From positions 386,234-450,233 of the forward strand of contig JAHCIJ010000002.1 in the NCBI GenBank assembly GCA_026129255.1: a DNA stretch of 64,000 nucleotides, in the 5' to 3' direction. The notes below the pieces were generated by a model that saw only the letters and a list, made by a program, of their open reading frames with translations, ran no database searches and was not told where the DNA came from. Shown piece after piece: positions 1 through 17,901 of the stretch; the first letter of the stretch is position 1, and every line of letters starts with the position of its first letter. The translations under genes and the position numbers were made by a program. The stretch is from Anaerolineales bacterium. GTDB lineage: Bacteria; Chloroflexota; Anaerolineae; Anaerolineales; UBA11579.

Positions 1-3000
1 CTACCGCCTGGGCTGGAACGAGGATTCCGAGCAGCTGACGCTGATGTATGGCTACCAGTGCACCACGGGCAACCCGTGCAGCACGCCGGATACGCCGTAC
101 ACGGCCAGCGGCTACGCGGGGACGGCTACCAACCGCGTGGCGAGCCGCTGGCGCGTAGACCGCATCTTGGACCGGCATGGCAATTTCATCGATTATGCGT
201 ATACGGAAGAGCAGCCTGACCCGGCTTCGCAGATCCCTGCGTTTGACCGGGCCAGCTACCTGGCCACGATCGCGTTCACTGGTTTCATCGAGGGCGGTTT
301 TGAGGGCACGGTAACCGAGACGCCGGGATACACGGTTGAATTTGTGCTGGGCACCCGCGAGGGGGTGGGCGATGTGGCCCCGTTGAACTTTGGCATTTGG
401 GACCAGTGGGACAGCCAGCTGCTGGAGCGCATCGAGATCCACTATGACAGCCTGCTGGTGCGCAGCTATGACTTTGGCTATGCGGCGGCGGCAGCCCCCA
501 ATGCCAACGGCACGCTGACGCTGACAGAGATCGCAGTGAGCGGCGGCGGCTATACCGAAGGCTCCATCAGTATCCCCAGCACGGATGCCACAACGATCAC
601 GTTTGCGTACGACGATCTGCCCAACCGGGCGCCGAGCGGCCAACAGAATGTGTGGAGCTACCCGCGCCTGGTCTCGATCGCCAATGGGTATGGCGGCCAA
701 CTCAACTACACCTATGAGCATGATGGCCGCGGGGCCAGCTCCTGGTACAACTACCGCGTGCAGCTGGCCGAGGTGGAGAGCGGGCTGGGATTGGCGGCGG
801 TGCAGCGCTATGCCTACGCCACGCCAGCATACACGAACCAGCCCAGCAACGGCCTGGGGGCCTTGTATGGCTACGCCACTGTCACCGAGGCCGCCCGCAA
901 CTTTGCCGACACGGCCGACCTTGTGCAGACTGTGTATAGCTTCGGCACGGCCGGGTTGGATATTGGCCGCCTGCTGACGGCGGATACGAAGGACCCTGGC
1001 GGCCAGGTGCTGCGGCGGGTGCGCAACACTTACACCACAGATAACAGCCAGGCGCCGTTTGAGGGATGGAACTTCCGCTATGTTTTGCAGAGCGAAAACT
1101 TTGAGTGGAACGGCAGCAATTTAGCGCTGATCAACAAAACCGTGTTCCAGCGTGACCCCCTGTATGGCAACCTGCTCACGCGCAGTGAGTATCTGGGGGG
1201 CAACCTGTACCGCAAGCAGATCCTGGAGTACGCCGTCAACCCTGATCCGGCGGTGTACATCCTTGACCGGGTTGCCAGCCAAACGCTGCGGGATGCGAAT
1301 AATACGCTGCTGGGCGAGACGCGCTATGTGTATGACGGCGGCGGCACGCTCAGCCTGGGGGAGCTCAGCCTGAGCCAAACGCTGACGGGAGTGAGCTACC
1401 CACAGAGCGTGGATGCGGCATATGTGTACGATGTGTTTGGCAACCTGGTGGAGACGCGGGCGTATGCGGGCTATGGCAGCGCGGGCTCAGCGCCCGGCGG
1501 CGGATACAGCGCCAGCCAGGTGGCGTATGACAGCGGCTTGCACACCTACCCGGTGAGCGCCACGAACGCGCTCGGCCAGAGCTCTGGCAGCAGCTACCTG
1601 TATTCGCTGGGCGTGCCAGTGAGCGTGACGGACCCCAATGGCTGGACGAGCAGCAGCAGCTACGACGGCCTGGGCCGCGTGGTGAGCACCACTGCGCCGG
1701 GTTTTGGGCAGGCGAATGTGATCTTCACCTATCCCAGCCCGAGCAATGGCCAGGTGGCGGCGCCGTATAGCATGAGCATGCAAATTCTGGATACGCTCGG
1801 CCCGGGCGCGCCGGCCTACCGCACGGTGACGGGTGTGTACGACGGCTTGAGCCGCATCCTGACGCAGAGCGTGGGCGGGCTGACCACGCTGACCGAATAT
1901 GACGAGCGCGGCCAAGTGAGTCGCCAGAGCCTGCCGCACGCCAGCGGCGAGACGCCGCGCTATGTGGAGACCAGCTACGATACGCTGGGGCGGCCCACCA
2001 GCAGCACGCGGCCGGGCGGCATCACCACGCTCTATAGTTATGCCGGGCTGGCTGTGACGACGATCGACCCCAACGGCCACCGTGTGACGCGCGGCCATGA
2101 TGGGCTGGGGCGCATGATCCGGGTGGATGAATATTCCGGCGAGCATCCCTCCACCGAGCTGTATGCCTCCACTGTGTATTCGTACACTGTGCGTGACCAG
2201 CTGGTGCAGGTGAAGGATGCGCAGAACAACCTGACCTCGATCAGCTATGACTGGCTGGGGCGCAAGACGAGTATGAACGACCCGGACATGGGCGTGTGGA
2301 GCTATGCCTATGATGCGCTGGGGAATTTAGTTCAACAAACTGACGCCAGGGGGCAGTCGCTGGGTTTTGAGTACGATGCGCTGGGTCGATTAATCGAAAA
2401 GATCAATGTCAACACCAGTCAGACCATCGCCACGTACACGTATGGCAGCACAGCGGGCACGATCGGCTTCCGCATGGCGATGAGCGACGCCAGCGGCAGC
2501 ACGGCCTGGAGCTACAGCAACTACGGGCGCACGGCCAGCGAAAGCCGCACGATAGACGGGGAGACGTATACCTTCACCACGGTGAGCGATTGGCTGGGGC
2601 GCGTGGCAAGCATTACTTACCCGGATAGCGAGGTGGTGAGCTACAGCTATGATGCGCTGGGGCGCGCCAACGGGGTTGTGGGCAGCCAGGCGGGCACCAT
2701 CGCGCAGCTGGCCTATAACAGTATTAGTCAGATAACGTCAACGAGTCTGGGTAATGGCGTGCAAGTCACAAATACCTACGACAGTGTGACGAGTCGACTA
2801 AGCAACCGCAATGCCACCAACGGTAGCGAAGACCTGATCGACTTCAGTTATGGCTATGACGCGGCTGGCAACATCACCAGTATTACGGATGCCGTGCTGG
2901 GCGAGAGCTTTGCGTATAGCTACGATCACTTGAACCGCCTGCTGGATGCGGACGCATACATTGATGCGGAGCCTGAGACGTATGTGTACCGCCAGCGCTG

Positions 3001-6000
3001 GGAGTATGACGGCATCGGCAACATGCTGCTGGCGGGCTTCTATGTGCCCGAAGAGCCGACCCCGACCGAGACGGGTACCGAGACCAGTACACCTACTGCC
3101 AGCAGTACGCCAACTGTGACGCAAACGCCGACGCCCACCGACACCGAAGAGGAAGGCCATGTACCCGGCGGGCTGCCCGGTGGGCTGCTGGCGGCTGCCG
3201 CCACCGAGGCCGCCAAGGCCACCCGCGGCGCGGTGCTGCGCTCGAAGGTTGCGCGCCTGCTGCTGCTGGACGACGAGCCGACCGAGACGCCCACGGCGAG
3301 CGATACACCGACGGCGAGTAGCACGCCTTCGCCCACGGCCAGCCATACAGCCACTGCCACGGCGGCGCCGGTGCTGCTGGGGGAATGGCATATGAACGAA
3401 ACTGCGGGAAGCAATGTGCCAGACAGCTCTGGCAAGGGGCACAACGGCACGCGCAGCGGCGCTACGTGGACTGTTTACGGCGTCTCCGGCGGGGCGCTGG
3501 AGTTTGACGGGGTGGATGATTACGTCAATGTGAGCAGCACAAACGACCTGAAGCCCACCAATAGCTTCAGTGTGGCGGCGTGGGTAAACCCCAGCGAAGT
3601 GGGCGTGGCCAATCGCATCATCCTCATCAAGGGCGCGTGGGATTATTCGCTGCGCCTGAACAGCGATGGCTACCTTGAGTTCCGCCTGGGTGAGGTGAGC
3701 CCGCACACCGTGAGCGGGCCGATACTGCCTGCCTATACCTGGACCTATGTAGTGGGTGTGTACAACAAAGACGCCAACACCATGCAGCTGTATGTGAACG
3801 GCCAGCTGGTTGCGGCCCAGGCGGTGACAGGCTCCATCACGCATGACGACAACCCGCTGCGCATCGGCGCATACATCACCGGCGGGCAATACTGGAAGGG
3901 CCGCCTGGATGAAGTAAGCCTCTACGACCGCGCCCTGACGCAAGACGAGATTGCGGCGCGCTACACCAGCTTCCCCACGCCCACGCCTACCGTGGGTGCG
4001 CAAACAGCCACGAACACGCCCACCACTACGCTGACGCCAAGTCTGACACCATCCCCCACGCCTTCGCCCAGCCTCACGCCCACGCTGGCGCCGGGCGGTG
4101 TGTGGGGCACGGGGCAGGATGGCAATGTGACGATCCCCACCGCAACCGCCGCGCACAATCTCCACACAACCAACTTTGCGGCGGGGCGTACCTGCAGTGA
4201 TGGCGGGGATGCGGTTGTCTATTCGGTAACCGCGCTGAGCTCAAACAGCGCAACCCTCAGCACATCCCCCAGTGCGGGCTGTTTGAACGTAGGTGACGAA
4301 ATTTTGCTGGCCAACATGCAAGGCGCAAATGGCTCCAGCATAAACACCGGCAATCACGAGTTTCTGCGCGTGTTAGCGGTCAGTGGAAGCACAGTTACTT
4401 TTTATACAAACAAAGAAAACTTCTATGGCTCTGCGGGCGGTAGTGATGCAGGGATTGGCACGGGGGCCACAGACCAGAAAGTGATCTTGCAACGCGTGCC
4501 TAACTATGCGGATCTGACGATCGCTGGCACGCTCACGGGGTCTGAATGGAACGGCACGCGCTTTGGCGTGCTGGCCTTGCGCGTGGCCGGTGAGCTGAGC
4601 GGCGCTGGCAGCCTGCACATGAATGCGCTCGGCTACCGTGGGGGCCGCGGCGGGTGGCTGGACACTCCACGCAATGAGCATTCCGATGCACACCAGGGGG
4701 AGAGTTACCCGCGGGTGGGGGTGTCCTCTGGGTCGCCTAATGGCGGCGGTGGCGGCGGGACAAATTCCAACCGCGGCGCTGGCGGCGGCTATGCGGCTAC
4801 CGGGGTAAGCGGGATAAACACAACCGGCGGGCAGCCCTACGGAGACGCGCAGTTGAGCCATCTGTGGATGGGCAGTGGCGGTGGCGGCGGTGATCACCCT
4901 TGCTCGCCGTGCTCTGGCCCCACCGGTGGAGCCGGCGGCGGGGCGCTATATATTTATGCACACACTGTAGATTATGCTGGCACGCTGAGCGCCAATGGCG
5001 GCGACGGGGCGTGCTACCCGGTCACAAACAACCAGAGTAGTGGTGGAGGCAGTGGCGGCACGATACGCATTGAGGGTGATGCGATCACATTGGATGGCAG
5101 CGTTACGGCCGCCAAGGGTATTGGCTGCGCAACCGGCGATGGCAGTGAGGGGCGTATCGCCGTTTTTTATGGCAGCAGCTTGAGCACCAGCACGGTGAGC
5201 CCGGCAGCGTACACCGAAGCGCAAGCGACACCACAACCCACGGCCACCCCCGGCCCGGCAGGGCCGTGGGGGACAGGTGAGGATGGGAACTTAAGCATAA
5301 CCAACCCGTTCAACATGCATACACAGAACAGTGGTGGCCGTGTTTGTGGTGATGGTGGGGATGCTGTGTCCTATTCGGTCACAGGGCTTACGGAGACCAC
5401 CGGCACCCTAAGCCAAAGCCCTGGGGCTGGCTGCCTGGCAGCGGGGGATGAAGTGCTGCTGATCCATATGCAGGGTACGTCGACTAACTATGCCAATCTG
5501 GGCAACTATGAATTATTGCGGGTATTGATGGTAGTAGGTTCCACCGTTTTCTTTGTGAACGGCAAAACGCTGGACTATGGAAACGATGGCGGCGATGAGA
5601 ACATTGGCGTCAGTGACGGGCAGCAGAAAGTTGTGCTGATGCGTGTACCCAACTACCAGAACGTAGACATCGGCAGCACCCTCACTGGCAGCGCCTGGGA
5701 CGGCACGCGCTTTGGCGTCATGGCCTTCCGCGTAGCGGGTGAGCTGAGCGGCGACGGCAGCATCAGCATGAGTGAGCGCGGCTATCGCGGTGGTAACCCC
5801 GGCTGGCGTGCGGATGGGCAGGGCGAGCTGCGTTACGCCAAACAGGGTGAAAGCTTTGCCGGGCCAGGCATACACTCACACGCCAATAACCAGGGCGGGG
5901 GAGGTGGCAACACCTCAAACGTTGGCGCGGGCGGAGGCTATGCCAGCGGAGGGGGTAATGGGATCAATACGAGTGGCGGAATCACCTATGGTGTGGACAC

Positions 6001-7831
6001 CCTGGATAGGCTGACGGTTGGCTCGGGAGGAGGCGGGTCTGTGTTCTTGTGCACCCCATGTGCAGGCGGGCAGGGAGGGGCCGGTGGTGGGGCGATACTG
6101 ATCTTTGCGCACAGCATTGATCTTGAAGGCAGTATTGCCGCCAATGGCAAGGCTGGGGAGTGTGTGCTGCCAACAAACAACACGCGCTCCGGCGGGGGCT
6201 CGGGTGGTTCCATCCGCTTGGAATCGGAAAGTATTGAGGTAGCTGGAGCGATAAACGCCACGGGTGGAGCTGGATGTGCTGGCTCTGGGCCAGGCGGTAC
6301 GGGACGAATAGCTGTGTATGCAGATTATTTTGCCTATAGCGCTGTTGACCCCGCCCCTTGGGTGCCAGGAGCTACAGCAACTCCGACGCCCACCCCCACG
6401 CCGACCACGCCAACGTTGCAACCGGGCTGGCACGATGGGCTGTATTTTTACGAAGGTGCCCAGCCCCACGCGGTCACGAGTGTTGAGCGCGGGGAAGACG
6501 AAGACACCTATGCGTATGACGCTAATGGAAACATGCTGGAGCGTATCGAAGGCGAAACCACCTGGACGCAAACCTACAACGCTGAAAATCGACTTTCGTC
6601 TATCAGTGATGGCACCGATACATGGACTTTCACTTATGACGGGGACGGCAGACGGGTCAGGCAAGTTGGCCCAACAGGGGAGGTAACACATTATGTAGGG
6701 GGCGGTATTTTTGAAGTACGAGATGCATTGGGGGATACAGAATTTATCAAGTATTACGGTATTGCTGGCCAACGTGTGGCCATGCAAGATGATGGGGGAA
6801 TCAAGTACTTACTAACAGACCACTTAGGCTCAGTGAGTGCCGTATTGGACGATACTGGAGCCATGCTGAGCCAGCAGCGTTACACGCCCTATGGCGAAAC
6901 ACGGTTTGAGATTGGCATAACTGAGACCGACTTTGGGTACACGGGCCAGCGTGTGTTAGCAGGCACTGGATTGATGGATTACAACGCGCGTTTCTATGCG
7001 CCTGGGCTGGGGCGATGGACGCAGCCGGATAGTATTGTGCCGGGGGTAAGCAACCCGCAGAATCTAAACCGTTTTAGTTATGTGCTAAACAACCCAATCA
7101 ACTTTGTTGATCCGAGTGGGCACTGCCCATCAGGCTTACGTTTGCTCGATGGGGAACAGTGCACTTCTAAGCCTAAAGCCACACCGATAAAACTCACACA
7201 GCAAGGAGAGCTTTTTGAAGAGTGGTATGAGAAACTAAATGCTAACAAAAACGGATGGTGGCAAGATGTTCTTGGCTCTGATGGTTCTTTTACTGTTATA
7301 GATGCTATCTCTATGGTGATGATCCAAGAGGCTCAAGGGCAATGGACCAACCCCCATCTTGGCGAAGCGATGATTCGTGCTGCCAATCAATACTGTAAGG
7401 CGCAATATAGTTCACCCTGCACACGGACTGGCTATATAAATTGGTTTGCGCGATATTCGCAAACTGCAATGTCACTAGTTAAGCAAGGGCAGCCAACCCC
7501 GCCGGATCCTCGTATCAATTATTCTGACTGGAATTCAATAGCTCAAGCCTCGGTAATCGACTTGGGGGCAAGTATCTCTAATCATCCGGTTAACTGGGAG
7601 GTGGGTTGCGTGTCTTCGAGTCCCTGTGGATGGGGGAACAATACAGCTGATATGTTTCCTGAGGCAGTGAGAGAACACTTGCATTTGAACCCAACGGCAT
7701 CATTTACATATTGGCCAGCTACTAATAATTACAACCCGAGTGTCAACTCATTTTTTATCCCTTCGGGTTGTATGGTTAGATTCTGGTTGGCAGGTAACAT
7801 CGGCTTTCATTGCCCAATAGGTATCCCATGA
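1..7831 (+). CDS. Giant RHS/YD-repeat polymorphic toxin, 5' end outside window (TcB/TcC-like shell, LamG, two Gly-rich domains, RHS core, unassigned Cys-rich C-terminal tip)
   Basis: Frame is open from base 2, with no stop before the first ATG at 44. Many YD-type repeats (YDGLGR, YDALGN, YDWLGR, YDHLNR). 'RWRVDRILDRHGNFIDYAYTEE' resembles the TcdB mid domain. RHS core 'YTGQRVLAGTGLMDYNARFYAPGLGRWTQPDS..NPINFVDPSGH' lies near 6900-7125. Confidence 0.9.
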   Translation, partial: YRLGWNEDSEQLTLMYGYQCTTGNPCSTPDTPYTASGYAGTATNRVASRWRVDRILDRHGNFIDYAYTEEQPDPASQIPAFDRASYLATIAFTGFIEGGFEGTVTETPGYTVEFVLGTREGVGDVAPLNFGIWDQWDSQLLERIEIHYDSLLVRSYDFGYAAAAAPNANGTLTLTEIAVSGGGYTEGSISIPSTDATTITFAYDDLPNRAPSGQQNVWSYPRLVSIANGYGGQLNYTYEHDGRGASSWYNYRVQLAEVESGLGLAAVQRYAYATPAYTNQPSNGLGALYGYATVTEAARNFADTADLVQTVYSFGTAGLDIGRLLTADTKDPGGQVLRRVRNTYTTDNSQAPFEGWNFRYVLQSENFEWNGSNLALINKTVFQRDPLYGNLLTRSEYLGGNLYRKQILEYAVNPDPAVYILDRVASQTLRDANNTLLGETRYVYDGGGTLSLGELSLSQTLTGVSYPQSVDAAYVYDVFGNLVETRAYAGYGSAGSAPGGGYSASQVAYDSGLHTYPVSATNALGQSSGSSYLYSLGVPVSVTDPNGWTSSSSYDGLGRVVSTTAPGFGQANVIFTYPSPSNGQVAAPYSMSMQILDTLGPGAPAYRTVTGVYDGLSRILTQSVGGLTTLTEYDERGQVSRQSLPHASGETPRYVETSYDTLGRPTSSTRPGGITTLYSYAGLAVTTIDPNGHRVTRGHDGLGRMIRVDEYSGEHPSTELYASTVYSYTVRDQLVQVKDAQNNLTSISYDWLGRKTSMNDPDMGVWSYAYDALGNLVQQTDARGQSLGFEYDALGRLIEKINVNTSQTIATYTYGSTAGTIGFRMAMSDASGSTAWSYSNYGRTASESRTIDGETYTFTTVSDWLGRVASITYPDSEVVSYSYDALGRANGVVGSQAGTIAQLAYNSISQITSTSLGNGVQVTNTYDSVTSRLSNRNATNGSEDLIDFSYGYDAAGNITSITDAVLGESFAYSYDHLNRLLDADAYIDAEPETYVYRQRWEYDGIGNMLLAGFYVPEEPTPTETGTETSTPTASSTPTVTQTPTPTDTEEEGHVPGGLPGGLLAAAATEAAKATRGAVLRSKVARLLLLDDEPTETPTASDTPTASSTPSPTASHTATATAAPVLLGEWHMNETAGSNVPDSSGKGHNGTRSGATWTVYGVSGGALEFDGVDDYVNVSSTNDLKPTNSFSVAAWVNPSEVGVANRIILIKGAWDYSLRLNSDGYLEFRLGEVSPHTVSGPILPAYTWTYVVGVYNKDANTMQLYVNGQLVAAQAVTGSITHDDNPLRIGAYITGGQYWKGRLDEVSLYDRALTQDEIAARYTSFPTPTPTVGAQTATNTPTTTLTPSLTPSPTPSPSLTPTLAPGGVWGTGQDGNVTIPTATAAHNLHTTNFAAGRTCSDGGDAVVYSVTALSSNSATLSTSPSAGCLNVGDEILLANMQGANGSSINTGNHEFLRVLAVSGSTVTFYTNKENFYGSAGGSDAGIGTGATDQKVILQRVPNYADLTIAGTLTGSEWNGTRFGVLALRVAGELSGAGSLHMNALGYRGGRGGWLDTPRNEHSDAHQGESYPRVGVSSGSPNGGGGGGTNSNRGAGGGYAATGVSGINTTGGQPYGDAQLSHLWMGSGGGGGDHPCSPCSGPTGGAGGGALYIYAHTVDYAGTLSANGGDGACYPVTNNQSSGGGSGGTIRIEGDAITLDGSVTAAKGIGCATGDGSEGRIAVFYGSSLSTSTVSPAAYTEAQATPQPTATPGPAGPWGTGEDGNLSITNPFNMHTQNSGGRVCGDGGDAVSYSVTGLTETTGTLSQSPGAGCLAAGDEVLLIHMQGTSTNYANLGNYELLRVLMVVGSTVFFVNGKTLDYGNDGGDENIGVSDGQQKVVLMRVPNYQNVDIGSTLTGSAWDGTRFGVMAFRVAGELSGDGSISMSERGYRGGNPGWRADGQGELRYAKQGESFAGPGIHSHANNQGGGGGNTSNVGAGGGYASGGGNGINTSGGITYGVDTLDRLTVGSGGGGSVFLCTPCAGGQGGAGGGAILIFAHSIDLEGSIAANGKAGECVLPTNNTRSGGGSGGSIRLESESIEVAGAINATGGAGCAGSGPGGTGRIAVYADYFAYSAVDPAPWVPGATATPTPTPTPTTPTLQPGWHDGLYFYEGAQPHAVTSVERGEDEDTYAYDANGNMLERIEGETTWTQTYNAENRLSSISDGTDTWTFTYDGDGRRVRQVGPTGEVTHYVGGGIFEVRDALGDTEFIKYYGIAGQRVAMQDDGGIKYLLTDHLGSVSAVLDDTGAMLSQQRYTPYGETRFEIGITETDFGYTGQRVLAGTGLMDYNARFYAPGLGRWTQPDSIVPGVSNPQNLNRFSYVLNNPINFVDPSGHCPSGLRLLDGEQCTSKPKATPIKLTQQGELFEEWYEKLNANKNGWWQDVLGSDGSFTVIDAISMVMIQEAQGQWTNPHLGEAMIRAANQYCKAQYSSPCTRTGYINWFARYSQTAMSLVKQGQPTPPDPRINYSDWNSIAQASVIDLGASISNHPVNWEVGCVSSSPCGWGNNTADMFPEAVREHLHLNPTASFTYWPATNNYNPSVNSFFIPSGCMVRFWLAGNIGFHCPIGIP
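3372..3965 (+). other. LamG / concanavalin-A-like lectin domain embedded in the RHS protein
   Basis: 'LLGEWHMNETAGSNVPDSSGKGHNGT...ALEFDGVDDYVNV...FSVAAWVNP...YVNGQLVA...PLRIGA...WKGRLDEVSLYDRALTQDEI' is the typical LamG/laminin-G_3 signature. It is flanked by Pro/Thr-rich linkers. Confidence 0.8.
4094..5218 (+). repeat. Intragenic tandem duplication, copy 1 of a ~370-aa Gly-rich domain
   Basis: Starts 'GVWGTGQDGNVTI', contains 'RFGVLALRVAGELSGAGSLHMNALGYRGG' and GGGxGG runs, and ends 'GRIAVFYGSS'. It is colinear with copy 2. Confidence 0.85.
5261..6357 (+). repeat. Intragenic tandem duplication, copy 2 of the Gly-rich domain
   Basis: Starts 'GPWGTGEDGNLSI', contains 'RFGVMAFRVAGELSGDGSISMSERGYRGG', and ends 'GRIAVYADYF'. 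The order of conserved blocks matches copy 1. Confidence 0.85.
6415..7125 (+). repeat. RHS-core recombination module, copy A (inside the main gene)
   Basis: 'LQPGWHDGLYFYEGAQPHAVTSVERGEDEDTYAYDANGNM ... NFVDPSGH'. It is colinear at DNA level with 9086-9790 and partly with 11811-11979. Confidence 0.9.
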
Positions 7832-8994
7832 GATACAGCTTATCCATGCTTTTGTCTTTGGTTTTGTTGACGGGATGTTCTCATAATATAGATTCTCCGC
7901 CTATGCTCGAAGTCGACGCGACAATAATAAGCCCCGCGGGGCAGCTTGAACCTTCAAGTACTCCGGCGCAGTTGCTAGCCGGGATTGAAGAAAGATGCTT
8001 GTGGCTCTCAGATCTTCCCATCCCTAGGCTATATGGTTCGCTTGTATATGATCGCTACGAATTATTTAGTGACGAATATGGTATTAGCATCCGAGACCTG
8101 AGAACCGACCGAGACTTCTTTGTTAAGGATTCGCGGTGGGCTTATGTATCTCCTAATCGAGAACTCATTGCATTTGAAATGATCGGTGACACCACTCTTG
8201 TCACTGACAAATTTGCTCACGTATTACAGAGTATTCCTCAAAGTAGGTATGCCGGCATACCAGTTAATGGCTGGATAAACAATGAAACTTTGGGTTTGGC
8301 GATTTATCCCAATAACTCTTTGAGAATATGGAACTGGCACGATCGTGAGTATCAAGAACTCTCGCGCGGAGAATTTCGTGACTTTGCTTCCATCGATCCG
8401 CAATGGACATTCGCCGTAAATTCAGACCTAAGCTTATTTGCCTATTCTAGTCAGGAGAACGGAACAACTTCTCTCGTAGTTTGGGATGATGTGCTAAAGA
8501 CTGAGATCGCGCGAATTCTGTATCCATCAAGAACTCTCCCCCCGATATGGTCTCCTGACGGTGGGCGCCTGCTCTTTTCTGCTGAGCTTAACGACTCGAC
8601 ACCTGACTTTCAATCAGGGGATCTGTTTTTTGTTACCAAGGATGGAGAAATAAACCGTTTAACTCAATTTGAGGACTCCTTGGCTTTTTTACAGTATGCT
8701 CCCGCGTGGTCTCCCAGCGGAGAAGCAGTTGCTTTTCTCTTCCGAAGTTCTCTTGATCAGCTTGAAGATGTAGGAGTCGTAGAAGTTGCGAAACAGAATG
8801 TTGTTCGCTATTGCACGGGGAGTTTTGGCCAATTCCTTGGCCCACCGCCTATCTGGTCGCCTGATGGTCAGTACATAATTATCCATCTGCAGAGCAACGG
8901 TTTTAGGCCATTTCTTGTTAACGTTGATTCTGGTGAAACGTGGCCTTTGCTAGAGGAGGGCGCTACCGTGCACGGATGGGTCGCAGGTGAGTAG
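7828..8994 (+). CDS. Exported PD40/TolB-like beta-propeller lipoprotein, candidate immunity protein for the main RHS tip
   Basis: The ATG at 7828 overlaps the RHS stop (ATGA). Lipobox 'LLSLVLLTGCSH'. Repeated 'WSPDGGRLLFSA', 'WSPSGEAVAFLF', 'WSPDGQYIIIHL'. The DNA is visibly AT-richer. Confidence 0.75.
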   Translation: MRYSLSMLLSLVLLTGCSHNIDSPPMLEVDATIISPAGQLEPSSTPAQLLAGIEERCLWLSDLPIPRLYGSLVYDRYELFSDEYGISIRDLRTDRDFFVKDSRWAYVSPNRELIAFEMIGDTTLVTDKFAHVLQSIPQSRYAGIPVNGWINNETLGLAIYPNNSLRIWNWHDREYQELSRGEFRDFASIDPQWTFAVNSDLSLFAYSSQENGTTSLVVWDDVLKTEIARILYPSRTLPPIWSPDGGRLLFSAELNDSTPDFQSGDLFFVTKDGEINRLTQFEDSLAFLQYAPAWSPSGEAVAFLFRSSLDQLEDVGVVEVAKQNVVRYCTGSFGQFLGPPPIWSPDGQYIIIHLQSNGFRPFLVNVDSGETWPLLEEGATVHGWVAGE

Positions 8995-10504
8995 GCTGGC
9001 TCCTGGGAGTGGACATGTCGATGGAAATGTACTCTGGTCATCAGGTGATATCGAGTTGTGCCTAGGTTCTGGGTGGTGGCTTTGCTTGCAGCCGGGCTGG
9101 CATGATGGGTTGTACTATTATGAAAATGTACAGCCGCACGCCGTGACACTGGTTGAACGCGGCGAGGATGAGGAGACATACGAGTACGATGCCAATGGCA
9201 ACATGATCGGCTGGACTGAAGGTGAAGAGGAGTGGGAGCTAGTTTACAACGCAGAAAATCGACTTTCGTCACTCAGTGACGGCACGGATACATGGAGCTT
9301 CACTTATGACGGTGACGGCAGACGGGTCAGACAAGTTGGCCCTATGGGGGAGGTAACACATTATGTAGGAGGTGCGTACGAAGTGCGCGACGCGGCCGGC
9401 GATGCCGAAGTACTCAAATACTACGGCATTGCCGGCCAGCGCGTGGCCATGGGGGATAGTGAGGGAATTAAGTACTTACTAACAGACCACTTAGGCTCGG
9501 TGAGTGCTGTATTGGACGATACTGGAGCCATGCTGAGCCAGCAGCGCTATACGCCTTATGGTGTGCCACGCTTTGAAGTAGGTATTACCGAGACAGACTT
9601 TGGTTATACCGGACAGCGAATGCTTACAGGCACTGGCTTGATGGATTACAACGCGCGCTTCTATGCGCCGGGTCTAGGGCGGTGGACACAGCCCGACAGC
9701 ATTGTGCCAAGTATTGGAGACCCACAGAATCTAAACCGATTTACTTACGTACTCAATAGTCCTCTTAACTTCATTGACCCGAGTGGGCGCTGTGCGTCAG
9801 GAATCATTCTGGACAGTCAGTGTTTGGCGTTTCATGCTCCAGGCTTGCGTTATAGGCCAGAAAATCAAGGTGCGTGCGCTGGTCAGATTTGTCCGCCGGC
9901 GCGAACAGATACTATGTCTCCGCCTCTGGATATTCCGTTAGTAGTAGGTGGAAATGATTGGCTAACAAAGCGTACGAATACAGATCCGGGTCATATTGGA
10001 GTGGATTATTCTGGAACACCCGGTATACCTGTTCGTTCATTAGGGAATGGCATTGTTGCAACATCTAGCGGATGCACATATTATATGGAGTACAACTGCG
10101 ACTACTATCACATTGAACTAGAAAAGAGAATAACAACACAGTCAAATCAAGGTTATGGTCATGTGGTTGTAATTGAGTATCCATATGGATCATTAAATCC
10201 CACTGTCATAACTGCCTTAGATATTCAGCCTGGCTATTCGTTATATGCGCTATCTGCTCATTTGTTGGACGCCCCGGTTGTGAACTCAGGTGACCCGGTC
10301 GAAGTGGGCGAAGTTATAGGACTTTTAGGCTCTAGTGGGTATTCTTCCGGACCACATTTGCACTTTGAACTTCGACAAGGCCCGACTGGTTATGTTAAGT
10401 CACTGGATTTTTACGGCTATTTATGGTTTGGCCTTCCACCAATTAATCCTCACTTGCTAGAACCGCTATACGGCATTAATCTAGGAAAGGGGATTGGGCA
10501 GTGA
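8987..10504 (+). CDS. Orphan RHS cassette: RHS core fused to an M23 (LytM-type) metallopeptidase tip
   Basis: RHS core 'LQPGWHDGLYYYENVQPHAVT...NFIDPSGRCASG', then M23 motifs 'GHIGVDYSG' (HxxxD) and 'GPHLHFELR' (HxH). The only in-frame start is GTG 8987, which overlaps the upstream stop. Confidence 0.8.
   Translation: MSRLAPGSGHVDGNVLWSSGDIELCLGSGWWLCLQPGWHDGLYYYENVQPHAVTLVERGEDEETYEYDANGNMIGWTEGEEEWELVYNAENRLSSLSDGTDTWSFTYDGDGRRVRQVGPMGEVTHYVGGAYEVRDAAGDAEVLKYYGIAGQRVAMGDSEGIKYLLTDHLGSVSAVLDDTGAMLSQQRYTPYGVPRFEVGITETDFGYTGQRMLTGTGLMDYNARFYAPGLGRWTQPDSIVPSIGDPQNLNRFTYVLNSPLNFIDPSGRCASGIILDSQCLAFHAPGLRYRPENQGACAGQICPPARTDTMSPPLDIPLVVGGNDWLTKRTNTDPGHIGVDYSGTPGIPVRSLGNGIVATSSGCTYYMEYNCDYYHIELEKRITTQSNQGYGHVVVIEYPYGSLNPTVITALDIQPGYSLYALSAHLLDAPVVNSGDPVEVGEVIGLLGSSGYSSGPHLHFELRQGPTGYVKSLDFYGYLWFGLPPINPHLLEPLYGINLGKGIGQ
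9086..9790 (+). repeat. RHS-core recombination module, copy B
   Basis: DNA-level colinearity with 6415-7125. The same conserved blocks appear in the same order, through the DPSG[HR]C[PA]SG junction. Confidence 0.9.
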
Positions 10505-11736
10505 TGAACCTGTTTCGGGTTTTTGTCGTCGCGGCAATTCTTGTAGGGTGTTCAAATTTTGGAGAAACGGAACTCCCGGTTTCCTCAATTGAGACTCCTA
10601 TGATTACAGTCCCGACCAAGACCGTATCAGCCTACCCCGGATTTGCTTATAGCACTAAAGTTCCCTTTGAGGCAAAAGGCAGTTTAATTGCTGTACTCCA
10701 TGATGGAGTGACGGTCTTGGATATTGCTGGGGGACTTATTAAAAGTTTTCCGTTACCTGAAAATTGTTCTCCATTTGTTGTTCCGCAATCTACTGAGTTT
10801 GTTTGTAAAGTGGGTGAAGACTTTATTATGTATGACGCTCTCTCTGGAGTAGAAAAACCCTTGGACGACCTTGAGGCTGACTGGATTAGCGCGACTAAAA
10901 ATGGAAAATTCCTTTTTTATGGCTATCAAACAGAGAAACTGGTAGTGGGGGTTATTGATACTAGCAGTGGCGAACACGTTAGTCAGGGACAGATTGATAT
11001 TTCTGAAGTCTATTCTGGCCCATGGAGTAGGCTTCCATACGGATCATTGACGTTGTCGCCCGACGGCAAATACTTTGCATTCTTAGCACACAGTAATAGT
11101 TTAAATATTGCAGATGTTGTCATCGTTAGCGCCATCGACTATAGTTTGATCGCTGTAGAGAATATGCCCGCTATTCAGGATTCGGGAGCGGGCCTGGCTT
11201 GGTCGTATGATGGGCGATACCTCCTTTATGGTTCTCAAGAATCAGCTTTTGCCCCGGAGATTTGGGCTGATGAACAATATCTTTTTGAAGTTGCAGACTC
11301 CCGAGCAGCATTTGTGCGTGAACTTCAGTTGGATCTTGCCGTGGACGAATTCTGGAGTAATCGCTGGTGGATACCCGGAGATTTGATCCCCCCAGGAAAC
11401 AACTTTTTAGCTGACGTTTGGTCGCCTGATAATGAACACCTTGTGCTTTCCTTTTCACGCTCTGATGAGAGCAATGGAGTTCAATATATACTGCAGGGTT
11501 TCTGTATAACCAAGATTATTGGTGAAAGAAACCTTTGCAAAGATATTGTTTCACAGACGGCAATTGATACATACTATTCTATTGACTCTCTGGGCTGGTC
11601 ACCCCGGGGGGATTTTGTTTATTTCGTCGCGAGGGGTTCAAGGGACACCGATGTTTTTATTTATAGCATTGAAAGAGACGAGTTTTTTCTAATACTTTCC
11701 GAATCGGGCATTGTAAGTGTTGAATGGATACCATAA
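10501..11736 (+). CDS. Exported PD40-like beta-propeller lipoprotein, candidate immunity protein for the M23 tip
   Basis: The start (GTG 10501 / ATG 10504) overlaps the upstream stop TGA. Lipobox 'AAILVGCSN'. Repeats 'LSPDGKYFAFLA', 'WSYDGRYLLYGS', 'WSPDNEHLVLSF', 'WSPRGDFVYFVA'. Confidence 0.75.
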   Translation: MMNLFRVFVVAAILVGCSNFGETELPVSSIETPMITVPTKTVSAYPGFAYSTKVPFEAKGSLIAVLHDGVTVLDIAGGLIKSFPLPENCSPFVVPQSTEFVCKVGEDFIMYDALSGVEKPLDDLEADWISATKNGKFLFYGYQTEKLVVGVIDTSSGEHVSQGQIDISEVYSGPWSRLPYGSLTLSPDGKYFAFLAHSNSLNIADVVIVSAIDYSLIAVENMPAIQDSGAGLAWSYDGRYLLYGSQESAFAPEIWADEQYLFEVADSRAAFVRELQLDLAVDEFWSNRWWIPGDLIPPGNNFLADVWSPDNEHLVLSFSRSDESNGVQYILQGFCITKIIGERNLCKDIVSQTAIDTYYSIDSLGWSPRGDFVYFVARGSRDTDVFIYSIERDEFFLILSESGIVSVEWIP

Positions 11737-11810
11737 TGTGCAAACATGACTTGCATGGTCGGTAGGTTTACTTTCTGAGATATTAAATAAATCATGCATT
11801 ATGCTCGGAG

Positions 11811-11979
11811 GCAAACCTATAACGCAGAAAATCGACTTTCGTCACTCAGTGACGGCACGGATACATGGAGCTTCACTTATGACGGGGACGGCAGACGGGT
11901 CAGACAAGTTGGCCCAACAGGGGAAGTAACACATTATGTAGGGGGTGCGTACGAAGTGCGCGACGCGGCCGGCGATGCC
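11811..11979 (+). pseudogene. Truncated RHS-core remnant (third cassette, both ends missing)
   Basis: 'YNAENRLSSLSDGTDTWSFTYDGDGRRVRQVGPTGEVTHYVGGAYEVRDAAGDA' is nearly identical to 9245-9408. Homology stops abruptly at 11979. Confidence 0.85.
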
Positions 11980-12022
11980 TGGAGGCCACCCCCTTGACAC
12001 CTGACCCTGAATCTGCACAAAC

Positions 12023-12062
12023 CGCAGCCTGCGTGCTATGAATGCCGCAGGCTGCGTTGTTT
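12023..12062 (+). terminator. Hairpin plus T-rich tail at the RHS-locus / phage-like-block junction
   Basis: CGCAGCCTGCG - 12 nt loop - CGCAGGCTGCG followed by TTGTTT. Confidence 0.5.
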
Positions 12063-12089
12063 AACGGCGCAGCACATCAAGGGGGATGT

Positions 12090-12917
12090 ATGTCGTACAC
12101 GTTCAGTGAGTTGCTTCAAGACGCTTATATGGAATTGGGCCAGCTGCGCCGCGGCCTGGCCACGGGCGGTAGCGCCAGCACGCTGGTGGATGCTGCCGAG
12201 TTGGCCGGCCAGCACCGCGAGGATGACTGGAAGGACGGTGCGCTGTTGCTGGCGGCCGGCGGCTCGCCGCCAGCGGGCGAATTCGCCAGCGTGGCGGGTT
12301 TTGTGGCCAGCAGCGGTACGCTGACGCTGGCCAGCAACCTCAGCGAGCCGGTGGAGGCGGGCATGGCCTATGGGCTGGCCTCGGCGCAGTACCCGCTGGC
12401 TACGATGGTCGAGCTGGCCAACAGCGCCCTGCGCGGTCTGGGGGATGTGCCCCAGGTGGACGAAGACGTGCTGCCTTCGAGTCAGCATGCCCTGGCTTGG
12501 GCGCGCCGCCGCCCGGTGCGTATCGATTATCTCGCCGTGCCCGGCGTGAGCGCGGGCGACCCATGGCGCACCCTGCACGATTGGGACTATGTGCCGCGTG
12601 CCCCCGGCTCGCCCGGGCTGGTGCTGTTCGCCGAGCCGTTGCCCGCCGGGCGGCCGCTGCGCGTGTGGTACCTGGCCTCCCACCCGCGCCTGGCCGCGCA
12701 TGAGGATGTGCTGGCCGAGGCGATCGCTCCCGAGCTGGCCGTGGCGGCCGTGGCCGAGCGCGCCCTGCGCTGGCAATGTGTGCGCAAGGGCGGTGACGAG
12801 AAGCTGGGCTTGCTGTGGCAAGACGCCGCCGAGGAGCTGCAGGCCGCTCGCCGCCGCTTCCCGATCTGGCGGCCGCAGCGCCCGGCGCGCTTGCTGCGTC
12901 TGCGGGGCCAGGCGTGA
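12090..12917 (+). CDS. Hypothetical protein, possible phage tail adaptor-type protein
   Basis: ATG 12090 is preceded by 'AGGGGGAT'. There is no recognisable enzyme motif. Position and size fit a virion adaptor upstream of a large propeller-like protein. The family assignment is a guess. Confidence 0.55.
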   Translation: MSYTFSELLQDAYMELGQLRRGLATGGSASTLVDAAELAGQHREDDWKDGALLLAAGGSPPAGEFASVAGFVASSGTLTLASNLSEPVEAGMAYGLASAQYPLATMVELANSALRGLGDVPQVDEDVLPSSQHALAWARRRPVRIDYLAVPGVSAGDPWRTLHDWDYVPRAPGSPGLVLFAEPLPAGRPLRVWYLASHPRLAAHEDVLAEAIAPELAVAAVAERALRWQCVRKGGDEKLGLLWQDAAEELQAARRRFPIWRPQRPARLLRLRGQA

Positions 12918-12990
12918 GCGCACGCGTGTATGCGGGCGTTAGGCGCCACACGCGCGGCCAGCAGCCACGGCTGTCTATGTGGAGCGCCCG

Positions 12991-15537
12991 ATGAGCCGCG
13001 TACGCGTGTATGCCGGGGCCAGTGCGCCAAGCCACGAGCTCAGCCTGAGTGACGGCGTGCTGACCTGGGGGCTGCGCTTGGAGGGTGGCGCCGACGGCAT
13101 CAAGGAGAGTGTGCTCACGCCTTCGGGCTTGCGGCTCAACTGGGTGAGCGGCTTCGGCGCCTGGGAGCCAGGCCTGGCGCAGATCGAGCAGCGCGATTGG
13201 AGCGGCGGCCGCGGTGCGGCGCGCTTTAGCACGCAGGCCGCCCGCCGCTACTACGACAGCCAAGACGCCTGGACGCTGACGCCGGGCCGCGTGCATGCGG
13301 CGCCGCAGTGGCGCTATGCCAGCGGCCTGCGTGCCGCTGCCCAACGCCTGCCGGGCGATGTGCGCTGGCAAGCGCTCATCGGGGCGCAACGCAGCCTGGC
13401 CGCCGCGTTCACCGTTGCTGCAGGCGGCTTGGCCGCCAAGCAGGCGCGTGTGTGGTTGCGCCGCGTCGGTTCGCCTGGCGAGCTGACCGCGCAACTGCAT
13501 GCCGATGCGGCCGGGCAGCCGGGCGCGGCGCTGCCCAACTCGGCTAGCGCCATCACCCAGGCGGATGTGACCGATGTGGTCAGCCAGCTGCGCAGCTTCG
13601 ATGTCTCTGGCTACAGCACACCGCTCAGCGCGGGTGCGTATCATCTCTCGCTGCGCGGCGCGGCCGCCGACAATGCCAGCAATCACTGGGAGATCGGTGT
13701 GCAACGGCGTGCCAGCGGCGGGCACAGCTCACCGGATGGCGGCGCCTGGAGCGCCACCGAGTTCTGCGCCTACTACCGCGTGCAGGATGCCGAGCGTGCC
13801 CGCACCTTCGTGTTTTTTGAGCTGCACGGCGCGCTGTATGCTGCCGACCAGTGTGCGGATGGCACACCCTCGCATGTCTATCTCAACGGCGAACGCGGCG
13901 TGGCGACCGGCGGCGCGGCCAGCGCGCTGACCGACACCGACAAGAACTGGCCGGTAGACCACTGGGCCGGGGCGTGGGTGCGTATCCTGGCGGGCAAGGG
14001 CGCGGGGCAGGCGCGGCGTATCACCGCCAACACGGTCAGCACGCTGGCGGTAGCCAGTTGGGACCAGGCACCGGATGCCACTTCGGAGTACGCCATCTAC
14101 GCCACCCCGCACTGGCAAGACATCTCGCCCGGCACCGGCGATCTGATCGATGGCATCGTGAGCGATGTGACCGTGCTCAATGGCCAAGCATTGTTGGCGC
14201 AAGGCAGCAGCGTGCCGGTCCTGCGCATGCGCTTTAACCCGGCTGCTTCACCGCCCACGCATGAGTTCGACGATGACGGCAGCAACACGGCCGACCTGCT
14301 GCACGCTTTCCAGCACAGTGAGCTGGGGCCGCAAGTGTGGCGCGGCTTTGTAGCCAGCGCGGAAGTGTCGCGCGCCGCGCCCAGCGCCTGGCTCACGCCG
14401 CTCAGTTTTGGCTCGGCGATCCAGCTGGGTGCGGATGGGCAGCCGCTGCACAAGTTGCTGGACTACAACAGCCAGCTATGGGCGGTGAAGGCCGACAGTC
14501 TGTGGATCGTGGAGCGCAGCGAGCATGTGGCGCGCCACCTGGGCCTGGAGGCGCAGCCCCAGCAGCCAACCCCGCCGCTATGTGTGGCGCAAGACAAGCT
14601 ATGGCTGGGCTGGGGCAGTAGCCTGCTGGTGACCGGCGCCAGCGGCCTGGCGGATCTTGGCCCCGGCCGCGGCGAGGGCTTGCCCGCCGGCCGCGGCGGC
14701 CGCGTGGCTGCGCTGGCACAGCTCGGTGTTGGCCGCATGGCGGCCGCCATCGATGCAGGCGAGGGGCACTCCAGTGTGCTGGTGTGGGACGGCGAAGCCT
14801 GGCATGAACTGATGCGTGCGCCGCAGGCTGGCGAGCGCGTGCGCGGCCTGCACTGGCAGGCCTGCCCCGGTACGGCGCCGCGCCTGTGGGTGGCGCTGGG
14901 CGGCGAGCTGGCCTACCTGGCCCTGCCCGCCAGCGGGGACAACCCGCTGGGCGATGGCAGCCTGCGCTACCAGCACGAGGGCGTGCTGGTGGGCAGCACC
15001 ATCGATATGGAAGCTACGCTGCTGCCCAAGTTTCTGACGCAACTCAGCCTGGTCAGCCGCAACCTGGGCGAGGGCGCCCAGGTGGAGCTGGACTACCAGG
15101 TGGATGGCGAGATCGGCGGGCCGCGCTGGCGCCAGGCGGGCGGCTTCTACTCCTCGCCGGTGGACACGCTGACCTTGGACACCGGCGAGCTGTTTGCCTT
15201 CCGCCCGCGGCTGCGCCTGCTCAGCCAGCGCGCCGATGCGCCCGCCACGGTTGAGGCGACCCTGCTGGAAGGCTTCGCGCGCACGCCGCAGAAGTACCAG
15301 TGGGAGCTGAGTGTGCGCCTGGCCGACCTGCAACTGGATGGCGGCGGCGGGCTGGAGCCTGCGCCGGAGGCCTTCCTGGCCTGGCTGCGCAATGCGGCCC
15401 GCAGCGCCGCCCGCATCCACCTGCGTTCCATCTGGGGCGCGCTGGATGACACCTACGTCATCGTTGAGGCGCCTAGCTTGCAGCGTGAGCTGGCCAGCGA
15501 GGGCGGGGTGGCGGTGGTGAAAGTGCGGGAAGGATGA
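12991..15537 (+). CDS. Large hypothetical protein (848 aa), possible phage tail hub/nozzle-like protein with propeller-like repeats
   Basis: ATG 12991 follows GGAG. Repeated blade-like segments 'LWAVKADSLWIV', 'LWLGWGSSLLV', 'VLVWDGEAWHEL', 'RLWVALGGELAYL'. No T7 gp12 'GGxSQQ' motif was seen. Confidence 0.55.
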   Translation: MSRVRVYAGASAPSHELSLSDGVLTWGLRLEGGADGIKESVLTPSGLRLNWVSGFGAWEPGLAQIEQRDWSGGRGAARFSTQAARRYYDSQDAWTLTPGRVHAAPQWRYASGLRAAAQRLPGDVRWQALIGAQRSLAAAFTVAAGGLAAKQARVWLRRVGSPGELTAQLHADAAGQPGAALPNSASAITQADVTDVVSQLRSFDVSGYSTPLSAGAYHLSLRGAAADNASNHWEIGVQRRASGGHSSPDGGAWSATEFCAYYRVQDAERARTFVFFELHGALYAADQCADGTPSHVYLNGERGVATGGAASALTDTDKNWPVDHWAGAWVRILAGKGAGQARRITANTVSTLAVASWDQAPDATSEYAIYATPHWQDISPGTGDLIDGIVSDVTVLNGQALLAQGSSVPVLRMRFNPAASPPTHEFDDDGSNTADLLHAFQHSELGPQVWRGFVASAEVSRAAPSAWLTPLSFGSAIQLGADGQPLHKLLDYNSQLWAVKADSLWIVERSEHVARHLGLEAQPQQPTPPLCVAQDKLWLGWGSSLLVTGASGLADLGPGRGEGLPAGRGGRVAALAQLGVGRMAAAIDAGEGHSSVLVWDGEAWHELMRAPQAGERVRGLHWQACPGTAPRLWVALGGELAYLALPASGDNPLGDGSLRYQHEGVLVGSTIDMEATLLPKFLTQLSLVSRNLGEGAQVELDYQVDGEIGGPRWRQAGGFYSSPVDTLTLDTGELFAFRPRLRLLSQRADAPATVEATLLEGFARTPQKYQWELSVRLADLQLDGGGGLEPAPEAFLAWLRNAARSAARIHLRSIWGALDDTYVIVEAPSLQRELASEGGVAVVKVREG

Positions 15538-15641
15538 CTATTAATCGACTAATCAAATCAATCAATGTCAATGGCCGACCAGTCGACTGGGTCGACTAGT
15601 CGACTGGTCACTTAGTTGAACAAGAATGGAGGTCTTTTTTT

Positions 15642-16067
15642 ATGTACAGCTTCATCTACAACGCAGGCAAGCTGGCCTTGCTTAAGGGCGAAGTACAGCC
15701 ACTGGCGGATACCTTGCGTGCCGCCCTGGTGACGGAAGAGTACGTGGCGGATAAGGACGCGCACGAAGTTTTGGCCGACATCAGCCATGAGGTGACCGGC
15801 GGTGGCTACACCTCCGGCGGCAAAGCGCTGGCGAGCGTCTCGCTGGCCCAGGACAATGCCAATGACCGTGCCGCCATCCTGGCCGATAACGTAGTCTGGC
15901 CGGTGGGCGCCTTCACCGCCCGCGCCGCCGTGCTCTACAAGGACACGGGCAACCCCGCCACCAGCCCGCTGCTGGCCTACATGAACTTTGGCGGCGACCA
16001 CACCGTGAGCGGTGAAGACTTCAACCTGGAGTGGAGTCCGGAGGGGGTGTTGTATTTGGGGGAATAG
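15642..16067 (+). CDS. Hypothetical small virion-type protein (141 aa)
   Basis: Strong SD 'GGAGG' before ATG 15642. The 'NAGKLALLKG...GGGYTSGGKAL...TARAAVLYKDTG..TSPLLAYMNFG' pattern recalls small conserved phage structural proteins. This is from memory only. Confidence 0.6.
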   Translation: MYSFIYNAGKLALLKGEVQPLADTLRAALVTEEYVADKDAHEVLADISHEVTGGGYTSGGKALASVSLAQDNANDRAAILADNVVWPVGAFTARAAVLYKDTGNPATSPLLAYMNFGGDHTVSGEDFNLEWSPEGVLYLGE

Positions 16068-17887: not shown

Positions 17888-17901
17888 CCGTGGCGAAACG
17901 T

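Follow-up and report, generated by a model that had tools for sequence, protein, structure and literature searches.

Orphan rhs-CT/rhsI modules have been described for rhsC of Dickeya dadantii, for Yersinia and for Salmonella Typhimurium LT2 (PMC3150448), and recombination between main and orphan rhs genes has been found to be selected in Salmonella (PMC3967940). The C-terminal displacement model for such arrays is that of Jackson et al. 2009, as cited in PMC3150448, and WapA of Streptococcus suis represents an Rhs/YD toxin of a monoderm bacterium (PMC12704120). A full-text literature search combining Rhs, orphan and Chloroflexi returned no paper. To our knowledge, interbacterial toxins are essentially unstudied in the Chloroflexota. 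Here, we describe an rhs locus on a contig of the metagenome-assembled genome (MAG) of an uncultured Anaerolineales bacterium (Chloroflexota), of which a stretch of 64,000 nucleotides, hereafter the window, was analyzed. The locus is very probably an array of Rhs polymorphic toxins in the classical layout of main gene plus orphan, built by C-terminal displacement and constituting an accessory island. As far as can be read from the sequence, all of the features that define a main rhs gene with an orphan rhs-CT/rhsI module are present, immunity function apart.

The array comprises, in this order and all on the forward strand, the main rhs gene, a lipoprotein gene designated imm1, an orphan gene in which an Rhs core is joined to an M23 peptidase tip, a second lipoprotein gene designated imm2, and a core fragment designated remnant C (Table 1). 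The four genes are packed without gaps, each stop overlapping the next start: the ATG of imm1 overlaps the TGA of the main gene (ATGA), the first in-frame start of the orphan overlaps the imm1 stop (GTGAGTAG), and the alternative imm2 starts, GTG 10501 and ATG 10504, overlap the TGA of the orphan (GTGATG). The guanine-plus-cytosine (GC) content is 0.62 in the shell of the main gene, 0.52–0.53 in the cores and 0.44–0.47 in the tips and immunity genes, compared to 0.61 in the rest of the window, a distribution that is the usual Rhs pattern.

The main gene was originally given a start at position 44, which is wrong: no in-frame stop occurs in 1–43 and the gene therefore continues beyond the left edge of the window, which the YD repeats also reach. 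Its domain order is YD/RHS repeats, a Pro/Thr (PT) linker, LamG, two glycine-rich AgmC_N-like domains, the last PT linker, the Rhs core and the tip. The repeats are recognized by PF05593 RHS_repeat (E = 1.7e-38, in five stretches) and TIGR01643 (E = 1e-31), and matches to Laminin_G_3 (E = 1.4e-33), YD_repeat_2x and the AgmC_N-like domains were also obtained. Most of the YD repeats are separated from the final, 237-residue closing core by approximately 1,100 residues (window 3100–6415), which hold the LamG domain and the two AgmC_N-like domains, the latter being 54–55% identical to each other, with PT linkers between them; the ortholog at locus L002 has the same insert layout, with SpvB and Toxin_R_bind_N domains farther upstream.

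The main gene ends in a core segment, copy A, that recurs within the orphan as copy B. Positions 6416–7134 and 9086–9801 are 77.8% identical over 720 bp (E = 2e-165) at an offset of 2667 bp, a result on which repeat finding, pairwise alignment and BLAST agree. Homology begins at TTGCA[A/G]CCGGGCTGG, encoding LQPGWHDGLY, and stops at the core-end motifs DPSGHC (7109–7126) in A and DPSGRC (9776–9793) in B; both copies keep the QPDSIVP...DPSG signature and score far above the TIGR03696 Rhs_assc_core cutoff of 32.5 bits (73.3 bits for A and 72.0 bits for B). The assignment of the catalytic aspartates of tip autoproteolysis is our assumption, taken from the TcC and Rhs structures. The recurrence of a core segment of about 700 bp, its start at LQPGWHDGLY directly after the last PT linker, and the presence of a different (M23) tip and a different lipoprotein gene behind copy B had all been proposed in the initial annotation. 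Each of these points was borne out, since the linker (6371–6415) abuts 6416, Pfam and lipobox matches identify the second tip and lipoprotein, and the alignments of the core copies confirmed the copies and their boundaries. The two tips are unrelated, and imm1 and imm2 are alike only weakly, at the level of their repeats. Core A is the segment that would permit recombination with the orphan.

That the cassettes exchange sequence, as had been claimed on the basis of the third core copy, is supported mainly by two other observations and less by that copy. The first is a tract of high identity between A and B: sliding identity reaches 0.92–0.95 at 6801–6890 (9468–9557 in B), compared to 0.63 at 6501–6590, where copy B is closer to the main gene of L002 (0.85–0.90). 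Within the tract, A and B are each only about 0.70 identical to the other genomes, and the longest stretches in which A and B agree exactly (38 and 29 bp) also fall there. Exact matches of this length are long enough for RecA-type initiation. The longest A/B concordant run, of 18 sites, has p = 0.001 by permutation of variable sites, or approximately 0.01 when corrected for ten pairs, and the strongest run among the pairs is that of the main/orphan pair of L002 (24 sites, p ≤ 1e-4). The tract is therefore probably the product of gene conversion between the main and orphan cores. The second observation concerns the tips themselves. The main genes of L002 and of L010, a locus on a JGI contig, are orthologous to that of the window in shell and core (75–80% amino acid identity), but homology ends at 7096–7130, i.e., at the core/tip boundary, beyond which they lack tip A and imm1 and bear unrelated tips and immunity genes. 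Since orthologous main genes carry different tips, the tips at this locus have evidently been replaced over time.

The orphan tip (tip B) is matched by PF01551 (E = 5.4e-13; 49.4 bits, cutoff 28.7), and its zinc motifs, HIGVD (9992–10006) and HLHFE (10355–10369), are intact and conform to the HxxxD and HxH pattern of the predicted M23 fold. Furthermore, H73/D77 and H194/H196 are invariant among tip B and three other Rhs-linked M23 tips. The NCBI annotation names the orphan product, a 453-residue protein (P0001), a ‘peptidoglycan DD-metalloendopeptidase family protein’. Over its first ~34 residues, just behind the DPSGR boundary (CASGIILDSQCLAFHAPGLRYRPENQGACAG..., window 9776–9890), the M23 tip shows 62% identity to the beginning of the DUF6973 tip in protein P0002 (L001 10652–10753), although the toxin domains that follow are unrelated (M23 versus DUF6973). 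This similarity suggests a Cys-rich linker, shared by both tips and placed ahead of the toxin domain, that may offer another joint for recombination.

The tip of the main gene (tip A) has no Pfam or PHROG family and a word-based protein search returned no homolog, whereas an exhaustive HMMER search returned 50 remote homologs. About a dozen of the 25 relatives that were aligned follow an Rhs core end (...FYNARWYDP..GRF...DPSGH), and the family has an invariant Glu (in MIQEAQG, 7319–7339) and an invariant Cys pair. When a profile of the family was compared with PDB sequences, the matches were confined to residues of the Rhs core end, which stand ahead of the tip in the aligned homologs. An AlphaFold (AF2) model built with a multiple sequence alignment has a predicted local distance difference test score (pLDDT) of 87.9 and a predicted template modelling score of 0.84, compared to a pLDDT of 37.6 for a single-sequence model, which was useless; Foldseek searches with the former gave no match in either the PDB (best E = 1.7) or BFVD.

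Both tips are followed by a lipoprotein gene in the position of an immunity gene. The N-terminal lipoprotein signals of imm1 and imm2 were read directly (MRYSLSMLLSLVLLTGC and MNLFRVFVVAAILVGC) and end in a lipobox of the pattern [LVI][ASTVI][GAS]C, and the homologs in L009, L011 and L012 carry ...TGC or ...SNC at the same place. WSPDG repeats of the PD40/TolB-like kind occur in both proteins, which are only distant relatives of one another. PD40/Tricorn-like propeller lipoproteins of approximately 360–450 residues directly follow both Rhs tip types in distant genomes: the tip A relatives P0121 and P0122 (40–45% identical) are each followed by a propeller lipoprotein of ~450 residues, at L011 and L012, where full-length imm1 homologs stand behind tip A-family toxins (E = 3e-22 and 2e-23, respectively); an M23-tip relative (36% identical) is followed by a 420-residue propeller protein; and the metagenome contig L013 carries an Rhs core, an M23 tip and then an imm2 homolog (E = 4e-12). 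The pairing of toxin and propeller lipoprotein is thus conserved in distant genomes, and by this pairing, their position and the stop/start overlaps, imm1 and imm2 are the putative cognate immunity genes. We infer an extracytoplasmic site of action, the cell wall or envelope, for both toxins, because the candidate immunity proteins are lipoproteins, one tip is an M23 peptidase and tip A has a Cys pair. More speculatively, tip A and its ~400-residue propeller lipoprotein could form a toxin/immunity family that is directed at the cell wall and has a fold of its own, both family and fold being new. At L009 (1–5640), a distant Rhs-core/M23/propeller cassette is flanked by IS3-family and IS110-family transposase genes, a context that hints at transposon-assisted movement of such cassettes.

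The third core copy, remnant C, is most similar to copy B (95.7% over 162 bp for 11818–11979, E = 2e-71, compared to 92% over 139 bp for copy A; over all 169 aligned columns, 93.5% and 85%, respectively). It was initially taken to be a direct footprint of recombination between cassettes. The quoted mosaic strings do match A or B as stated, and the informative sites run AAAA BBBBBBB A B AAAA BBB..., a clustering with p = 0.0006 in a runs test per site but a marginal p = 0.033 once sites are collapsed to codons. Polarization against three outgroup copies (six copies in total) indicates, however, that four of the nine A-like sites (alignment columns 124, 126, 127 and 151) reflect changes private to B, since their A-like state is shared with the outgroups, while four further sites (columns 21–25) concern a 5' haplotype of which the alternative is common to B and the L002 main gene. 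The six copies include every one of the four possible pairings of 5' and 3' haplotypes (a four-gamete pattern), and recombination must therefore have occurred somewhere in the family within this stretch. What stands of the original claim is thus a clustered mosaic and recombination in the family, and not its assignment to an exchange between A and B in this genome; remnant C itself is best described as a scrap of B-type core cut at both ends. It lies inside a 67-codon open reading frame (ORF; 11794–11997) for which there is no functional evidence. Core fragments likewise stand at the array ends of L002 (13653–13901) and L010 (12745–13125); all three are 3'-truncated, and those of the window and L010 are 5'-truncated as well. 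The missing 3' part of remnant C was sought elsewhere in the window and not found. A mobile element splitting the remnant was considered and rejected, the high-GC DNA past 11980 being conserved backbone according to the relatives.

According to the displacement model, incoming DNA carrying a core, a tip and an immunity gene would recombine within the core and push the old tip downstream. RecA-type recombination between cores A and B could delete the equivalent of 7127–9790 and join the M23 tip to the shell, placing it at the end of the main protein. In the meantime the main value of the orphan would be its immunity gene, probably co-transcribed with the operon, and both toxins would act outside the cytoplasm on the cell wall. 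Several points weigh against this interpretation. Toxicity, immunity, secretion and recombination are all deduced from sequence, and neither the N-terminus nor the export route of the main protein falls within the window; a domain scan of positions 1–29,100 of the 64,000 nucleotides identified no secretion-system genes. The immunity candidates are beta-propellers of ~400 residues, far larger than a typical RhsI. As A and B are just 78% identical overall, RecA recombination between them should be rare. The 3' cut of remnant C is not explained by C-terminal displacement, which predicts 5' truncation only, and a later deletion is therefore needed besides displacement. Finally, an M23 tip on a full-length shell was not found among relatives, and the metagenome collection searched for alternative upstream joins held no near-identical M23 tips; a profile-based scan yielded, besides the generic M23 genes that made up most of its output, three short contigs with an Rhs link, of which two are clearly orphans. 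The first of these absences is uninformative, because the protein search returned nothing longer than ~1,000 residues. Indeed, both protein homology searches returned only proteins of at most ~1,010 residues, so that length distributions drawn from them are biased, and the main proteins of the window, L002 and L010 (>2,600 residues), which were expected as top matches, were absent. For the same reason the notion of a family existing only as short, stand-alone core-plus-tip proteins was rejected as an artefact of a search without proteins above ~1,010 residues.

A different account would regard the array as a fossil, the orphan toxin and the remnant being decaying leftovers of which only the immunity genes are under selection, with no present switching. 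Remnant C, being debris cut at both ends, fits such an account, as do the doubly or 3'-truncated terminal remnants that recur in L002 and L010, the overall A/B divergence of 22%, and L001, which shows that arrays can lose the main gene yet keep fragments. The orphan itself speaks differently: its core-plus-tip frame of 1.4 kb has no stop or frameshift and a GC content of 45–53%, it retains the Rhs core (72 bits versus 32.5) with its DPSG boundary as well as the two zinc motifs of M23, and the recent conversion tract ties its core to that of the main gene. We consider a fossil array possible, though on the whole unlikely. An origin of the repeats in misassembly or in a chimeric join is extremely improbable, although the source is a MAG contig and GC content jumps sharply from 0.46 to 0.71 at 11980. 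The copies are 78% identical rather than near-identical, and hence are not collapsed or duplicated reads, and beyond the GC jump lies conserved backbone, which is also found beside Rhs arrays in genomes assembled independently (among them CP075526, a complete chromosome, and the JGI contig of L010), so that the jump is no chimera.

The orphan could also be translated on its own, by reinitiation at GTG 8987 after imm1 or from an internal start, and form a toxin/antitoxin-like pair with imm2, a proposal that is compatible with an Rhs array and would add a function to it. The initial annotation held that the orphan frame stays open back to this GTG, overlapping the preceding stop. The GTG is indeed the first in-frame start and overlaps the TAG of imm1 (8992–8994), yet the frame is open only from 8954, and an open stretch of 44 codons upstream of the homology arises in 14% of shuffles and is thus expected by chance at that rate. 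The gapless packing of the four genes, a 505-codon frame that is intact with every motif kept, and the precedent of internally expressed orphan Rhs toxins in Salmonella (PMC7043789) favor independent translation. The ribosome-binding match, on the other hand, is weak: the Shine-Dalgarno pairing energy at GTG 8987, -6.2 kcal/mol, is attained at 13% of arbitrary positions, compared to -7.8 to -10.5 kcal/mol for clear genes nearby, -7.1 before TTG 9086 and +0.9 before the start chosen by NCBI, which, to judge from the N-terminus of P0001, appears to be an internal GTG at 9143. Moreover, the overlap of immunity gene and orphan is not conserved, as the corresponding junctions of L010 are gapped by 20–240 bp; promoter-like sites in the array (8, versus 6.8 expected) give no significant signal; and an M23 peptidase without an export signal would not reach peptidoglycan, which makes a cytoplasmic toxin/antitoxin role hard to see. 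On balance the sequence evidence on stand-alone translation is neutral, and the combined reading, independent translation with a toxin/antitoxin-like role alongside imm2, is unlikely. Co-transcription with the main operon is plausible, since the genes overlap and no convincing promoter or terminator was found between the four genes, and imm2 would be independent of orphan translation, because it has a good ribosome-binding site of its own (AAAGGGGA, -7.8 kcal/mol).

Table 1. Positions of the array features, the adjoining backbone and the corresponding sites in related genomes (window coordinates unless a locus is named)
Feature	Position	Strand	Remarks
Main rhs gene	1–7831	+	5' end beyond the window; >2,609 codons visible
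Core copy A	6416–7126	+	Last YD repeats and Rhs-associated core, LQPGWHDGLY to DPSGHC; GC 0.52
Main tip (tip A)	7127–7831	+	234 amino acids; undescribed, predicted C-terminal toxin domain family
imm1	7828–8994	+	PD40/TolB-like beta-propeller lipoprotein, immunity position; lipobox LLTGC
Orphan reading frame	8987–10504	+	505 codons from GTG 8987
Core copy B	9086–9790	+	Within the orphan frame; last 235 codons of a core
Core B high-identity tract	9468–9557	+	92–95% identical to core A 6801–6890; B coordinates hand-derived from the 2667-bp offset
Predicted M23 peptidase tip (tip B)	9791–10504	+	Within the orphan frame
imm2	10501–11736	+	Second PD40-like beta-propeller lipoprotein, immunity position; lipobox ILVGC
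Remnant C	11807–11979	+	Internal core piece (~core residues 52–107), both ends cut, B-type
Right island boundary	11980–11989		Conserved backbone begins at CCCTTGACAC (11990); junction 11989/11990
p278 leader	11990–12089	+	TTGACA element; perfect 10-bp hairpin 12024–12055 with TGCTATGAAT in the loop; ribosome-binding site
Podovirus-like block	12090–17558	+	p278 12090–12917; p852 12979–15537; p141 15642–16067; p487 16095–17558
Propeller lipoproteins in relatives	L009 3012–4274; L011 1801–3159, 4490–5575; L012 1044–2393; L013 2580–3245		
Site content, window			Main gene, one orphan, remnant
Site content, L001			Orphans only and a glycine-rich-domain fragment
Site content, L002			Main gene, one long orphan, core remnant
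Site content, L010			Main gene, three orphans, doubly truncated remnant; cores ~60% identical
Site content, L004			Non-Rhs insert, ~2 kb
Site content, L003, L005, L006, L007			Empty

The array is bounded on its right by a podovirus-like gene block that lies outside it. Homology to L001, in the complete 2.24-Mb Anaerolineales chromosome CP075526, and to L002 resumes at 11985–11991, and the DNA past 11990 is 85–86% identical to the sequence beside the Rhs arrays of these two loci, nucleotide identity over the block being 81–86%. The block is also present in L003–L007 and L010, a scan of species-representative genomes with the 852-residue protein p852 having returned five further loci. At L003, L005, L006 and L007, a phage-type major capsid gene (SU10_MCP, E = 8e-62; PHROG 1328, E = 1e-52) is followed within ~220–270 bp by p278, p852, p141 and p487, with no Rhs DNA. 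Alignment of empty and occupied sites places the insertion point in the spacer between the terminator hairpin of the capsid gene (GGCCCAGGCGAGGGGGAGCCTGGGCC) and the p278 leader. As the site is empty in four relatives and the insertion point has been mapped by alignment, the whole array constitutes an accessory island, the left junction of which in the source genome would, judging from L001 and L004, lie at the corresponding position. At L001 (7445–13200), only orphan cassettes and a glycine-rich fragment occur and the main rhs gene is absent from this site. The single tRNA of the window (43646–43718) is far from the island.

The backbone is, by its gene content, phage-derived. An alignment covering 97% of p852 shows 37.5% identity to a protein encoded by podovirus MW202608, the 41.8-kb genome of which has the order capsid ... 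300 aa ... 883 aa, and the L001 ortholog of p141 (88% identical) matches phrog_644. No Pfam, PHROG or PDB sequence matches were obtained for p278, p852 and p487, and tblastn against phage genomes was informative for p852 only. The block (12090–17890 with the further gene p109) is accompanied in the relatives by a p124 gene and the SU10-type capsid gene on the other side of the island, and no portal or terminase gene occurs near it in L001, L003–L007, L010 or the window. An ABC transporter lies directly upstream of the block in L001, and the ORF layout of L005 appears to be the same. The GC content of the block is 0.71, compared to 0.61 for the genome, and the capsid protein is 93–95% identical across species whereas the neighboring GNAT protein is only 52–66% identical, which suggests that the block is a domesticated phage remnant under strong constraint. 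The block was also considered as a delivery device for the Rhs protein, but a general link of this kind was rejected, since in four related species the block is present and the site is empty.

Partial copies of the p278 leader (in the window, 11990–12064) occur inside arrays and inserts, at cassette boundaries, in L001 (8901–8973), L002 (12521–12598) and L004 (8188–8231), and that of L001 is accompanied by a duplicated 114-residue gene; an Rfam search with the leader hairpin gave no match. These internal copies may be traces of repeated insertion into one site, or duplicated promoters. A dedicated cargo-capture site in the spacer between the capsid terminator and the p278 leader, at which cassettes would be added distally by events that duplicate a hairpin leader of ~45–75 nucleotides, is a speculative and very unlikely explanation. 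Were it true, such growth would differ from classical C-terminal displacement and might link the array functionally to the phage-derived block.

The locus extends the main-plus-orphan layout, together with its recombination signature, to the Chloroflexota. It also yields two candidates for experiments, i.e., a predicted M23 peptidoglycan peptidase serving as an Rhs tip and a confidently modelled toxin domain without any related fold in the PDB. Each has a large beta-propeller lipoprotein as its partner, and both lipoprotein types recur with their toxin type in distant genomes. Neither candidate alters the understanding of Rhs systems. The added value lies in the undescribed toxin domain and its propeller partner, in the first detailed Anaerolineales arrays, and in an insertion hotspot within a podovirus-like block.

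The biology of WapA in Bacillus subtilis serves as background for a comparison with monoderm bacteria. Like WapA of B. subtilis and other monoderms, the system described here would consist of a large extracellular YD protein with a polymorphic C-terminal toxin and an adjacent immunity gene, without a type VI secretion system (T6SS). The WapA toxins known so far are mainly nucleases acting in the cytoplasm, whereas at least one tip of the present array is a predicted peptidoglycan peptidase with a lipoprotein as its putative immunity partner. The locus also resembles the TcB/TcC cocoon of Tc toxins (PDB 4igl and 6h6e), in that the core-end residues of the aligned homologs match the core end of TcC and TcdB2-TccC3, an SpvB domain stands at the N-terminus of the main-gene ortholog in L002, as it does in TcB, and the tip follows a DPxG-type boundary. 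It differs from Tc toxins in having no TcA partner that was seen, in being a single polypeptide with orphan cassettes, and in its likely targets, which here would be bacterial cell walls and there are eukaryotic cells. The CdiA-CT/CdiI and MafB arrays (PMC3150448, PMC4436062) share with it the arrangement in which displaced cassettes of toxin tip and immunity gene stand behind a delivery gene and retain some conserved upstream sequence through which they can recombine. The delivery scaffold there is a two-partner-secretion filament with a VENN boundary, whereas here a YD shell and a DPxG boundary are found.

The closest resemblance in detail is to enterobacterial rhs loci (PMC3150448, PMC3967940), which likewise have a full-length YD gene with a conserved core, a DPxG boundary, a variable tip and an immunity gene, followed downstream and in direct orientation by 5'-truncated orphans of core, tip and immunity gene, with tips and immunity genes of lower GC content, a shared core that permits recombination between main gene and orphan, and tips that differ between related genomes at the same locus. 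The present locus differs from these in its host phylum and its lack of a T6SS context in the scanned part of the window, in a boundary that reads DPSG[H/R]C instead of PxxxxDPxGL, in immunity candidates that are PD40 propeller lipoproteins of ~390–410 residues instead of small cytoplasmic proteins, in the LamG and two glycine-rich domains set on PT linkers between most of the YD repeats and the closing core, and in the position of the island within a phage-derived gene block. These differences concern details of membership and not of kind, and the locus is an ordinary, textbook-type spare-tip system with a few new local details.

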